DNA of 64,000 nt, taken from NCBI GenBank assembly GCA_027038175.1, contig JALVYB010000051.1, positions 28,021 to 92,020 on the forward strand. The letters run 5' to 3'. Position numbers and translations under genes: made by a program. Of the stretch, positions 16,839-20,138 are shown one piece after another (the first letter of the stretch is position 1; each line of letters begins with the position of its first letter). Source of the DNA: a candidate division WOR-3 bacterium (lineage in GTDB: Bacteria; Hydrothermota; Hydrothermia; UBA1063; CAJXJZ01). The notes beneath the pieces are model-generated. The model was not told the DNA's origin and made no database searches. It saw only the letters and a list, made by a program, of their open reading frames with translations.

Positions 16839-19800
16839 TTAATTATTTGCGTAACATCTTTTCTGCTCACTTACTACTTCTTCTATTCTATGCTTTAGCC
16901 CCATTTCCTTATAAAGGTCAATTGCCATGTTAAAGAGTTTCAGACTTTTTACCTTATTATTATGGCAATATGCTATCCCCATCAACCTATAATAATCGGC
17001 AAGATATAGTTTATCGGGATATCCCTTTAATAGATAGTAGAGATTATCAAGGTATGCGTGGGCTTCTTCATACTGTGATGAAAGAAGCATATATTGGACA
17101 TCTAAAAATGCTTTTTCTATTCTCAAAGGAAGAGCACCCTTGCGCGGTAAGATTTCATCAAGTCTTTTAAGTGATTCAAAAGCAGGGGCAAGGTCTCTAT
17201 TCCAGAGGAGTACCTCGGCCTTTGTTAATAAAAGATCACGTTCATCAAACCCATCCGTACCTTCTTCCTCAAGTTCACCAAGTATAAGCATTGCCTTCTC
17301 GGGCTCTCCCTGCGCCAGATAAACTTTCAATGTATTCCTTACAATCTGGGAGAGTACATTTTTCATATCAATTTTTTCGGCTATATTGTAAGCATTTTCA
17401 AACATATTCATTGCAGTAGAATAGGAGCCCATAATGGTAAGCAACGCACCGATATTCATTTTATACAGAGTTTCACCTGCTTTGTCCACTACTTTCTCAG
17501 CAAGTTTTTCTGCCTCAATGAGATTTTTTAACCCTTCTTTTAACCGACCCTTTGCTTTGTAAACAAGTCCAAGGTTGTTGTATATAAATGAAAGTGATTT
17601 CAGGTCTTTATTATCCTCTGTATCCTGGAGAGCGCTCAAAAGATATTTTTCAGCATTATCAAAATCTCCTTTAACTGCAAGTAAAACTGCGATATTCTCA
17701 ATGGAAAGTTCTTCTCCCAATCTGTAACCCAGATGCAGAGCAATCCCCGAACCATCCCTATACGAAATTTGCTCTTTTTTCTCATTTTCTGCATCATCAC
17801 TCCTTACTATATCCTGTAATCTTTTTGCGTATTTTCCAAATAATCCTTTAGCCTTCTTGTAATACTGCGATGCCTCTTTTGCCACATTACTCTCACTCAC
17901 ACCACTATCTTTCAGTTTTTCCTTTATTTTTCTTGAAATACCATGCTTCTCATCGAGTCTCCTAACGACCCCACCAATCCCCCCAAATTTATGCGAAAGT
18001 GGCGAATTAGAAGAAATTTTCTCCTCCTGGTCATTCCTTTCAACCTCTGTCGTAGAACTCACACGGGCCAAATCCATTTCACCAGAAACAGAAATCTTAC
18101 CAAGATTCCACAATACACCCCTCAAAAGGGTGCCTGCAATCTTCTCTATCTCAGGGATACCAACATTCTTTGCAAAGTTCAGAGCTTTTTTGAGGAACTC
18201 CTCTGCCTGCAATAAATTCCCGAGTTTTCTGAGAATCCCGGCCTTCTTCACAAGAATTCTCGCATATTGAGGAGATGCAGGAGTACCAGATGCATCTTCC
18301 ATTAGATTGTTCTCTGCCCATTCATAGTAATCTAACGCTTTTTCATCAGCATATAGATTACTTGCTTTGTCCCCTGCTCGTTCACCATATTCTATTATCT
18401 TTTCTTTAACACCAGCAAGATAATAATGATATGCAATTTCTTCTTCTGCCTCTTCCCTCATATGAGATTCAAGCCATTCAGCAACCTTTTTGTGCAGGTG
18501 CATGCGGGTAATATTGTTTAACTCTGTGTTGTATATAATCTGCCGTGCCATTCCGTACTTAAACTCCACTACGTCCTCTCTCTCACCTTCTCTCAAGAGG
18601 GTACTTTTAATGCCCTCTTCTATAGCACCAAACACTCTACCCTCATTATAACCAAGTATATCCCTTAATAATTCTACATATCCCTTTCCTGCAACACTTA
18701 CAACTTTGACCACTTCCTGAGCATCATGACTGAGTCCGGAGAACTTTTCTTTTATTACCCCTTCAATGCCACCTGGCAATAACTCATTATCCGGTGCTGT
18801 AAATACCCACTTCCCGCTCTCTTCTCTAAGATATCCCTCCTTATTAAGCACTTTAACAAGTTCCTCTATATAAAATGGATTGCCACCACCTCTTGGGATA
18901 ATATAATTTTCGAATTCAGGTACTGCCTCACCTACAATAACTCTTAAAAGACTTTTTACATTCTCATTTTCAAAAGGCAGAAGTTCTATCTTTTTTAAAG
19001 AATACGTTCTCTGAATACCATTTATAAACCTTTCAAGGTAGGGCACATGCTCGCCACTTCTCTCAGCAAAAACAAACCTTACGTTCTCTCCACTACTTAG
19101 AAGTATGTACTTTAAAGCGTCAACACTATCACTGTCTATCCACTGAATATTATCTATTACTATCACCTTTTTTCGCGTACCGGCATTAAAAACATAGGTA
19201 AATGCCTCATAAAGCCTGTATTTATCCAGGGCGCTTCCCAGAGTCCGTAATTCCTCGTCGCTTATTTCTTTAACCATCCCTGGAACTATTTTACCTATCT
19301 CAATCTTCAAAGCCGCAGGCATCTCTCGAAATACCTCTGTACCATCTCTTGCTATCTTATACTTCACGAGTTCTCTTAAGGGATAATATGGAAGTTTGTT
19401 ATCAACAGCAATACAATCACTCCATAAAACCTCTATATCGTCAAATTTTCTGAGCACTTCTCGTATTAATCTTGTTTTACCTATTCCGGCCTCGCCTCTT
19501 ACAAGGGCTATTTCTCCTCCTATAACTGCACTTCTCAAATCTTCGGACTCCACTTTTCTGTTCACGAAATCCCTCGGAGGAATATGTATTTTCTTCAGAG
19601 TTTCACGCCCTAATTTTCCTCTACCGGTTCTTTTAGCAATATATAATCTTTCATCAGCCCTCAAAAAGAGTTCATCATAAGAACTACCATCTTCTGGATA
19701 TACCGCTATCCCTGCGCTTATCGTAATATTCAATCCACCAAACCTTTCTCTGTGTATTTTTTTAATTACGTCCTCCCACACGGCAAAAGCGGTTTCACCA

Positions 19801-20138
19801 CCAAGCCCTTCCTGAACAACGAGGAATTCATCACCACCATAACGAATTATTATGTCCTCTGCTCTTAGATTCTCTTTTAAAAATCTTGAAAAGCTGGCTA
19901 TAACTTCGTCCCCTTTCATGTGACCGTATGTATCGTTAACCTCCTTAAAGTGGTCTATATCCACTATGGAGAGTGTAAAAGGGCTTCTACTTGCCAGAAG
20001 ATTGTTAATAAACTCCTCTTTTACACGCCTTAAATACCTTCTATTAAATAACCCGCTCAGGTCATCAAGGTACTCAAGTTTAACATCTTCTGACTGCATA
20101 AATATTATTATAAATCTCCACAATTCAGAGTGCAACAA
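16839..20138 (-). CDS. STAND-type signalling protein: GGDEF diguanylate cyclase, AAA_16 P-loop NTPase and TPR repeats. The true start is probably the internal Met at 20100.
   Basis: N-terminus DDLSGLFNRRYL...HFKEVNDTYGH..GD...RYGGDEF has an intact GGDEF active site. Walker A is VRGEAGIGKTRLI. Walker B is VIVIDNIQWIDSDS. The C-terminal ~600 aa are TPR-like repeats. Same ATPase–TPR scaffold as the cyclase protein at 1207-4443. Confidence 0.75.
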   Translation of the reverse strand: MLHSELWRFIIIFMQSEDVKLEYLDDLSGLFNRRYLRRVKEEFINNLLASRSPFTLSIVDIDHFKEVNDTYGHMKGDEVIASFSRFLKENLRAEDIIIRYGGDEFLVVQEGLGGETAFAVWEDVIKKIHRERFGGLNITISAGIAVYPEDGSSYDELFLRADERLYIAKRTGRGKLGRETLKKIHIPPRDFVNRKVESEDLRSAVIGGEIALVRGEAGIGKTRLIREVLRKFDDIEVLWSDCIAVDNKLPYYPLRELVKYKIARDGTEVFREMPAALKIEIGKIVPGMVKEISDEELRTLGSALDKYRLYEAFTYVFNAGTRKKVIVIDNIQWIDSDSVDALKYILLSSGENVRFVFAERSGEHVPYLERFINGIQRTYSLKKIELLPFENENVKSLLRVIVGEAVPEFENYIIPRGGGNPFYIEELVKVLNKEGYLREESGKWVFTAPDNELLPGGIEGVIKEKFSGLSHDAQEVVKVVSVAGKGYVELLRDILGYNEGRVFGAIEEGIKSTLLREGEREDVVEFKYGMARQIIYNTELNNITRMHLHKKVAEWLESHMREEAEEEIAYHYYLAGVKEKIIEYGERAGDKASNLYADEKALDYYEWAENNLMEDASGTPASPQYARILVKKAGILRKLGNLLQAEEFLKKALNFAKNVGIPEIEKIAGTLLRGVLWNLGKISVSGEMDLARVSSTTEVERNDQEEKISSNSPLSHKFGGIGGVVRRLDEKHGISRKIKEKLKDSGVSESNVAKEASQYYKKAKGLFGKYAKRLQDIVRSDDAENEKKEQISYRDGSGIALHLGYRLGEELSIENIAVLLAVKGDFDNAEKYLLSALQDTEDNKDLKSLSFIYNNLGLVYKAKGRLKEGLKNLIEAEKLAEKVVDKAGETLYKMNIGALLTIMGSYSTAMNMFENAYNIAEKIDMKNVLSQIVRNTLKVYLAQGEPEKAMLILGELEEEGTDGFDERDLLLTKAEVLLWNRDLAPAFESLKRLDEILPRKGALPLRIEKAFLDVQYMLLSSQYEEAHAYLDNLYYLLKGYPDKLYLADYYRLMGIAYCHNNKVKSLKLFNMAIDLYKEMGLKHRIEEVVSEQKRCYANN

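Follow-up and report, generated by a model that had tools for sequence, protein, structure and literature searches.

We analysed a 64,000-nucleotide stretch of contig JALVYB010000051.1 (positions 28,021 to 92,020; assembly GCA_027038175.1; hereafter the window) from a candidate division WOR-3 bacterium, and focused on a reverse-strand gene at 16839..20099 that encodes a 1086-amino acid (aa) protein composed of an N-terminal GGDEF domain, a P-loop NTPase of the STAND type and C-terminal tetratricopeptide repeats (TPRs). We favour, with moderate confidence, the view that this protein is a cytoplasmic diguanylate cyclase under the control of a STAND ATPase switch, and that ligand-driven oligomerisation would pair its GGDEF heads. 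More tentatively, the GGDEF-STAND-TPR proteins may constitute a distinct class of cyclases switched by ATP-dependent, ligand-induced oligomerisation, and the tandem copies with divergent TPRs found in WOR-3-type lineages may form a receptor repertoire, possibly sensing foreign proteins, that feeds into one messenger.

Domain architecture and conserved residues

A preliminary description of the window, made from the nucleotide sequence alone, had read the protein as a GGDEF-AAA_16-TPR fusion. This reading is borne out by hidden Markov models (HMMs), alignment to PleD, invariance of key residues throughout the family and a confident fold model. The open reading frame (ORF) listed at 16839..20138 on the reverse strand (1099-aa numbering) exists, with its stop codon at 16839..16841 (coordinates were checked at the nucleotide level). 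Translation probably starts at the ATG at 20097..20099 rather than at the TTG at 20138, because a 100% identical database protein of 1086 aa (P0001) has MQSEDV, encoded from this ATG, as its first residues; the 13 extra residues from the TTG are thus probably not translated. Residue numbers refer to the 1086-aa protein unless the 1099-aa numbering is stated. An AlphaFold2 (AF2) model derived from 98 relatives has a mean predicted local distance difference test score (pLDDT) of 84.8 and is confident except for aa 684-798.

The GGDEF domain (aa 1-165; 19605..20099) scores well above the cut-offs of Pfam GGDEF (PF00990; 1.2e-34, 119.9 bits against 23.8) and NCBIfam TIGR00254 (6e-41, 139.9 bits against 37.4), and in the model it can be overlaid on GGDEF domains of known structure at about 2 Å, with template modelling (TM) scores of 0.8-0.87. 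Residue equivalences were taken from an alignment to PleD (1W25) and to the Hypr enzyme of Geobacter (6D9M). D47 corresponds to the metal-binding D327 of PleD, N55 and D64 to N335 and D344 involved in guanine recognition, R79xxD82 to the inhibition (I) site R359xxD362, R86 to R366 of the catalytic site, G88-G-D-E-F92 (19824..19838, verified at the nucleotide level) to the active-site motif GGEEF, and K156 to K442, which binds phosphate. Each of these residues (D47, N55, D64, R79, D82, R86, the GGDEF motif at 88-92 and K156) is invariant in 98/98 aligned relatives. The hallmarks of an active enzyme noted in the preliminary description are therefore intact: the motif is of the RYGGDEF type, the upstream motif that it quoted (DDLSGLFNRRYL) is present at residues 12-23, and the RxxD site that it proposed to look for is found as R79-A-E-D82 (19854..19865), five residues before GGDEF. 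A cruder motif scan found RxxD-x5-GGDEF in 119 of 120 relatives. The domain is apparently an active diguanylate cyclase. In Hypr enzymes the guanine-specifying Asp is replaced by Ser or Thr, as in the cGAMP synthase 6D9M, which has Ser; D64 is the canonical Asp, in this protein and in 98/98 relatives, which predicts cyclic di-GMP (c-di-GMP) as the product. The position of PleD R390, the third I-site residue, is Arg in 93/98 relatives, and D, G, N and K in the protein studied here (D110; 19770..19772) and its three closest relatives.

The GGDEF domain begins about 10 residues from the N-terminus, and neither the sequence nor the model shows an N-terminal sensor, stalk or coiled coil ahead of it. 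It is joined by a 25-aa linker (aa 166-190; 19530..19604), delimited by the secondary structure of the model, lower pLDDT and lower conservation, to a P-loop NTPase (aa 191-375; 18975..19529) that matches Pfam AAA_16 (PF13191) at 4.4e-15 (57 bits against a cut-off of 32.6). The NTPase also gives weaker Pfam echoes of AAA_22, NB-ARC, NACHT and nSTAND, and matches the ATPase region of the TOMM kinase/cyclase fusion protein of NCBIfam. The best PDB fold match of the AF2 model is the STAND-TPR ATPase PH0952 (6MFV; E 7e-12), and Avs3 (8DGC) is also matched (E 2e-8); PH0952 emerged from this fold search, while a profile of the NTPase alone, run against PDB sequences, matched TPR regions only. The Walker A motif GEAGIGKT (19473..19496) and the Walker B motif VIVID316-N317 (19149..19166) were both verified at the nucleotide level, and G202, G207 and K208 of the former and D316 of the latter are invariant in 98/98 relatives. 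Thus, neither of the two findings that the preliminary description had named beforehand as arguing against it, a degenerate GGDEF motif or a missing Walker A lysine, is seen. The sensor-I-like R347 (19059..19061) and H536 of the winged-helix module (18492..18494) are each kept in 97/98 relatives; we take H536 to be the equivalent of the ADP-latching His of STAND proteins. The helical arm and winged helix (aa 376-545; 18465..18974), assigned from the model and motif conservation, also contain a G406-N-P408 motif (18876..18884), of which G406 is invariant, P408 is found in 92/98 and N407 in 67/98 relatives. The STAND order of NTPase, helical arm, winged helix with conserved His and repeat sensor is thus found in the model, the PH0952 match and the TPR HMMs combined. 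The second acidic residue that follows the Walker B Asp in the STAND signature (hhhhDD/DE) is absent: this position (N317) is occupied by Asn in 78/98 relatives and by Asp in the other 20, which by analogy with other P-loop switches suggests slow ATP hydrolysis.

The remainder of the protein consists of about 11 TPRs in two blocks. Block 1 (aa 546-683; 18051..18464) has seven helices in the model and a Pfam TPR_8/TPR_19 match at aa 609-643 (622-656 in the 1099-aa numbering). Block 2 (aa 799-1086; 16842..17705) has 16 helices forming about 8 TPRs, modelled with pLDDT >90 and matched by TPR_12 (2.7e-21, five stretches), TPR_10 and, below threshold, TPR_MalT; it is the presumed ligand sensor. The two are divided by a 115-aa insert rich in K, E, S and G (aa 684-798; 17706..18050), which has a pLDDT <50, is predicted to be disordered, coincides with alignment gaps and is poorly conserved, being only 32-49% identical even to orthologs; it splits the array where most relatives have ordinary TPRs. 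The P-loop NTPase followed by about 600 aa of TPRs that had been described initially is therefore correct for the NTPase and roughly so for the length (aa 546-1086), but aa 684-798 are a non-TPR insert.

Proposed mechanism

GGDEF domains are active only when two GTP-loaded domains pair, and a lone GGDEF domain is normally inactive (PMC7825114). Gating from the C-terminal side is favoured here because the protein lacks an N-terminal stalk or sensor that could pair the GGDEF heads, and we infer a MalT-type cycle, in which an ADP-locked monomer would exchange its nucleotide and oligomerise, from the conservation of the STAND hallmarks. In the resting state, the NTPase would hold ADP and the protein would be a closed monomer, with its single N-terminal GGDEF head lacking a partner. 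Binding of a ligand, which may be a small molecule, a peptide or a protein, to the C-terminal TPR array would lead to the exchange of ADP for ATP, upon which the NTPase and winged-helix modules would open and oligomerise, allowing the GGDEF heads to meet on their 25-residue linkers and to make c-di-GMP. The RxxD site would provide product feedback, and Asn317 probably slows ATP hydrolysis, so that the on-state may last long. Further points in favour are that the interchangeable N-terminal heads of this NTPase clade (class III cyclase, Ser/Thr kinase and SARP) likewise act as dimers or oligomers, that the window encodes a second cyclase on this chassis, and that the gene occupies a fixed housekeeping locus in related genomes.

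The same parts could also be wired differently. The GGDEF domain might be constitutive, or limited by product inhibition only, with the STAND-TPR part localising c-di-GMP synthesis to a partner complex and no ligand-gated oligomerisation taking place. TPRs are classical protein-protein interaction modules, the Walker B D-N pair suggests weak hydrolysis, and diguanylate cyclases of E. coli are known to signal locally by way of protein contacts (PMC5635695). However, the inactivity of a lone GGDEF domain without a dimerising element (PMC7825114) is difficult to reconcile with a constitutive enzyme, and a passive scaffold needs neither a near-invariant Walker A motif nor the sensor-I-like Arg and the winged-helix His. 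We therefore consider this arrangement unlikely, and prefer a cyclase switched by its STAND module.

Several points nevertheless weigh against a STAND-gated cyclase. The D-N pair of Walker B could mean nucleotide binding without turnover, or another kinetic scheme. The interruption of the TPR array by the disordered insert could alter or abolish ligand sensing in this particular copy. Product inhibition may be weaker than the RxxD motif alone implies, since the position of PleD R390 is no longer an Arg in this orthogroup. The predicted TM score (pTM) of the AF2 model is 0.56, and the relative placement of the domains is thus uncertain; the prediction was of a monomer only, so oligomerisation lies outside the model. 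Lastly, we found no biochemistry on any member of the family in the open full-text literature.

The family and its paralogs

The impression of rarity given by the preliminary description does not hold. A word-indexed search yielded 2,030 matches at E <= 1e-10. Among the best 120, 115 are proteins of 985-1163 aa with GGDEF, AAA_16 and TPR domains, and the other 5, at 608-670 aa, are shorter and have the GGDEF and AAA_16 domains but no TPRs. An exhaustive search with aa 1-620 as the query against 1.84 billion representatives at 50% identity returned 1,006 proteins at E <= 1e-30. Among the 150 best, nearly all are co-linear with the query from their own N-terminus through the GGDEF domain, the NTPase and the winged helix. 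With the GGDEF domain N-terminal in nearly all of these 150 relatives, regulation must come from the C-terminal modules. The named members belong to the candidate divisions WOR-3 and TA06 and to the Aegiribacteria, are labelled 'diguanylate cyclase' or 'GGDEF domain-containing protein' in the databases, and point to WOR-3-type lineages.

Family members number at least three or four in related genomes. Two genomes have a group of three spaced over about 15 kb, which in one of them includes a near-tandem pair. In L084 (ERZ23491667 scaffold_1), the paralogs P0007 and P0008 (8001..14934) are separated by a single gene, for a 118-aa membrane protein of the Phage_holin_4_2 (DUF360-type) family, and a third copy lies 6.6 kb further downstream; only one copy is found at the corresponding place in the related genome L089, and the duplication in L084 is therefore recent. 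Paralogs of the same genome share 40-60% identity in the GGDEF domain, NTPase and winged helix, and only 16-37% in the C-terminal TPRs, the most divergent region, as would be expected if a common output were combined with diversified sensors. The paralogs of a genome would thus combine the same output and switch with different TPR sensors, and channel several inputs into one messenger.

The NTPase module alone finds relatives with N-terminal GGDEF, class III cyclase, Ser/Thr kinase or SARP/BTAD DNA-binding heads, and the same proximity logic would hold for the three types of head other than GGDEF in this NTPase clade. A scan of contigs with the family alignment, which used generic GGDEF patterns (FKxINDxxGH, RYGGDEF), returned mostly ordinary diguanylate cyclases, with no WOR-3 genomes among the matches listed. 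Three matches were informative: a Chloroflexia metagenome-assembled genome (L004) with a GGDEF-NB-ARC/NACHT-like-TPR layout, Tissierella sp. P1 (L007) with kinase-AAA_16-TPR-GGDEF and Herpetosiphon llansteffanensis (L068) with kinase-AAA_16-GAF-GAF-GGDEF. The search of the representative library also brought up three giant relatives of 2,253-3,257 aa (P0372, P0409 and P0417), each with two or three NTPase-like stretches, and these are therefore multi-module STAND proteins related to the GGDEF-STAND-TPR family.

Genomic locus

The cyclase gene is divergent from the genes for citrate synthase, a zinc-ribbon/TPR protein, aconitase and isocitrate dehydrogenase. On its own strand, 75 nucleotides downstream, it is followed by genes for the beta and gamma subunits of an oxoacid:ferredoxin oxidoreductase, ndk and an asparaginase gene, and no terminator-like site was found between the cyclase gene and this downstream group. 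The gene order is identical in two related genomes (L001 and L002), making this a fixed housekeeping locus in three related genomes. A functional link to the tricarboxylic acid (TCA) cycle and oxidoreductase genes on the basis of this synteny was considered and rejected, since the entire 25-kb block is collinear in the related genomes, so that the collinearity reflects their relatedness, and since distant family members lie in unrelated contexts. The flanking enzymes are 93-95% identical to those of both related genomes, compared to 61% and 53% for the GGDEF-STAND protein. Synonymous sites are saturated in all genes (proportion of synonymous differences, pS, 0.72-0.91), and only the relative nonsynonymous divergence (dN) can hence be compared, which is 0.31-0.40 for the cyclase gene, compared with about 0.04 among the TCA enzymes and 0.15-0.21 in the asparaginase. 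Differences between orthologs of the GGDEF-STAND protein are distributed over all its domains, and the idea of a rapid evolution specific to the sensor was dropped for this reason.

The order of N-terminal effector, STAND NTPase and C-terminal TPRs is also that of antiviral STAND proteins, as reflected in the fold match to Avs3 (8DGC; E 2e-8), and raises the question of whether the protein is an Avs-like immune sensor. Its TPRs would then bind an invader protein, its STAND module would oligomerise, and c-di-GMP or another product of the GGDEF domain would serve as an alarm leading to dormancy, matrix production or the activation of a separate effector. The tandem clusters (three copies in about 15 kb, in each of two genomes), the strong TPR divergence between paralogs and a dN that is 7-9 times that of the neighbouring TCA genes would all fit such a role. 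However, PADLOC found no defence family, the sole match being a generic TPR model at 3e-7, and the flanks are those of a locus that keeps its place amid core metabolic genes in the three related genomes, rather than those of a variable defence island. No partner or effector gene was found to be conserved beside the more distant family members, which lie in unrelated contexts. The divergence between orthologs covers all domains, and with synonymous divergence (dS) saturated, positive selection cannot be claimed. The specificity residue D64, in addition, predicts ordinary c-di-GMP. An immune function of this kind thus seems distinctly improbable to us. A reversed flow of signal, in which the GGDEF domain would be a receptor of c-di-GMP or GTP that controls the STAND ATPase and a TPR-bound output, is very improbable, even though RxxD is invariant and receptor GGDEF domains such as that of PelD exist, because receptor-type GGDEF domains usually lose the catalytic motif, whereas the catalytic residues are present here in 98/98 relatives, indicating selection on catalysis, and because the orthogroup lacks one of the three I-site residues. 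A catalytically active GGDEF head switched by the STAND module therefore remains the reading that we prefer.

Some of the neighbouring genes deserve mention in their own right. The oxidoreductase genes (15213..16764, reverse strand) encode a 333-aa fusion of ferredoxin (delta) and beta subunit and a 186-aa gamma subunit. Directly upstream of them, on the same strand, lies the GGDEF-STAND gene and not an alpha subunit gene (POR_N), here as well as in L001 and L002; no POR_N gene was found among the Pfam-scanned ORFs of the window, the scans having covered part of its ORFs. The gene for an ARPP-1 domain protein (PF20208; 13009..13923, reverse strand) is the second fast-diverging gene of the conserved block, with 64% and 53% identity to its positional orthologs and neighbours at 93-97%. 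The zinc-ribbon and TPR protein of 246 aa (21432..22172, forward strand), encoded between citrate synthase and aconitase and 89-93% identical in three related genomes, is an unusual insertion in a row of TCA cycle genes. The named relatives of the citrate synthase are all distant, from Aciduliprofundum (68%), Aminicenantes (64%), Hydrothermota (61%) and WOR-3 (58%).

The HD-GYP gene and other genes of the window

The preliminary description had also proposed a local c-di-GMP circuit in which the cyclase would act together with a GAF-HD-GYP phosphodiesterase and glycosyltransferases encoded in the window. The phosphodiesterase gene (55662..56819, forward strand) is real, with an intact HD...GYP motif, and directly follows genes for a GT2 glycosyltransferase (53411..54310) and a priming sugar transferase of the Bac_transf family (54277..55662), the three having overlapping ends on the forward strand. 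They may form an operon that couples c-di-GMP breakdown with polysaccharide synthesis, and the placement of the HD-GYP gene is a reasonable hint of such a tie. The circuit itself is not upheld: the cyclase and HD-GYP genes are 35.5 kb apart, with about 30 unrelated genes between them, including those for reverse gyrase, two large secreted peptidases, and purine and NAD metabolism, and no second GGDEF domain, no EAL or PilZ domain and no c-di-GMP riboswitch turned up in the window. The two enzymes would share one diffusible pool of c-di-GMP, but nothing in the sequence connects their genes other than the common genome, and their genomic proximity adds nothing.

Reverse gyrase (43297..46776, reverse strand; 1159 aa), with zf_Rg, DEAD helicase, Toprim and topoisomerase domains, is a hallmark of thermophiles and hyperthermophiles, and its presence suggests that the host is thermophilic; the best named relative of the citrate synthase (Aciduliprofundum, 68%) is also from a thermophile. 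The reverse gyrase gene is adjoined by one for an ATPase of the AAA_15/AAA_21 type (AbiEii/OLD-like; 46799..47884, forward strand) and then by a 161-aa ORF with no Pfam match, the two being possibly a small pair of the defence or toxin-antitoxin type. The two putative secreted peptidases, a clostripain (C11) with a CARDB domain (25444..29415, forward strand; 1323 aa) and a gingipain-like C25 peptidase with a FlgD_ig domain (32909..36670, forward strand; 1253 aa), have homologs in related loci that carry Por_Secre_tail, which suggests that they are cargo of type IX secretion. Four ORFs gave no Pfam match at E <= 1e-5: 50251..52746 (reverse strand, 831 aa), 31502..32725 (forward strand, 407 aa), 9192..10664 (forward strand, 490 aa) and 60544..61521 (reverse strand, 325 aa).

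Significance and comparison with known systems

The gene studied here was correctly recognised in the preliminary description and is one, non-unique member of a family that is large, often present in several copies and concentrated in uncultured FCB-type lineages (WOR-3, TA06 and Aegiribacteria). No account of a GGDEF-STAND-TPR diguanylate cyclase emerged from a search restricted to the open full-text literature; in Kaur et al. (2020), GGDEF comes up for vWA-MoxR systems alone. Both the components and the chassis are familiar, and sequences of the family are already in the databases with automatic annotation; it is the pairing of a diguanylate cyclase with control by a STAND module that appears to be unstudied. 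If our interpretation is correct, it would represent a different activation logic for these enzymes, i.e. induced proximity by oligomerisation with an ATP/ADP timer, and would tie c-di-GMP signalling to the switch family of MalT, Apaf-1, NLRs and Avs. The family also offers a tractable entry point, by way of a soluble protein that can be produced and assayed, to the inputs of c-di-GMP signalling in WOR-3, TA06 and Aegiribacteria.

The canonical diguanylate cyclases PleD, WspR, DgcZ and DosC share the GGDEF fold, the catalytic residues and the RxxD motif with this protein, at 33-38% identity, with E values around 1e-24 to 1e-26 (DosC, PleD) and 1e-18 to 1e-21 (WspR, DgcZ). Their sensors (REC, CZB, globin, PAS or GAF) are N-terminal and act through a dimeric helical stalk, as in nearly all diguanylate cyclases studied so far, whereas all regulation is C-terminal here. 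MalT, PH0952 and AfsR, on the other hand, share the P-loop NTPase, arm, winged helix and TPR sensor with the GGDEF protein, and the TPRs of AfsR and PH0952 were matched by a sequence profile. MalT works as an ADP/ATP switch with ligand-induced multimerisation. The output of MalT-type regulators, whose sensors are TPRs or SUPRs, is DNA binding through LuxR or SARP domains, while that of the GGDEF protein is an N-terminal enzyme. Avs proteins have the same order of effector, STAND NTPase and TPRs, with the weak fold match to Avs3; their effectors are nucleases or proteases, while the GGDEF protein is predicted to make a second messenger, is encoded at a housekeeping locus and has no PADLOC defence match. 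Proteins combining a Ser/Thr kinase, AAA_16 and GGDEF, such as those of L007 and L068 and the kinase-TPR-GGDEF protein of C. thermocellum listed in a domain census of 2005 (PMC1262709), share the AAA_16 STAND module and the GGDEF domain, with TPRs in L007 and C. thermocellum and not in L068. Their kinase is N-terminal and their GGDEF domain C-terminal, after GAF domains, which amounts to a different wiring of switch and cyclase.

The closest analog is the class III cyclase-AAA_16-TPR type, which shares an N-terminal cyclase head that has to dimerise, the STAND NTPase, the winged helix and the TPRs. We take Rv0386, Rv1358 and Rv2488c of Mycobacterium tuberculosis to be of this type. The GGDEF protein differs in that its head, as a GGDEF domain, is predicted to make a cyclic dinucleotide and that it has no C-terminal LuxR DNA-binding domain. 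The window itself encodes a class III protein (1207..4443, reverse strand; 1078 aa) with a Guanylate_cyc match at 1.2e-7 followed by AAA_16 and TPRs; its sequence suggests two cyclase-like halves. The NTPase modules of the two window proteins are 23% identical (E 1e-6) and fall in one clade, with a canonical D-D in Walker B of the class III protein (LVVDDLHWLD), in contrast to the D-N of the GGDEF protein. The catalytic domains of GGDEF proteins and class III cyclases are themselves distant homologs (Pei and Grishin, 2001, as cited in PMC7159879). It would thus seem, from the two sequences, that one genome uses the same STAND switch for two different nucleotide messengers.

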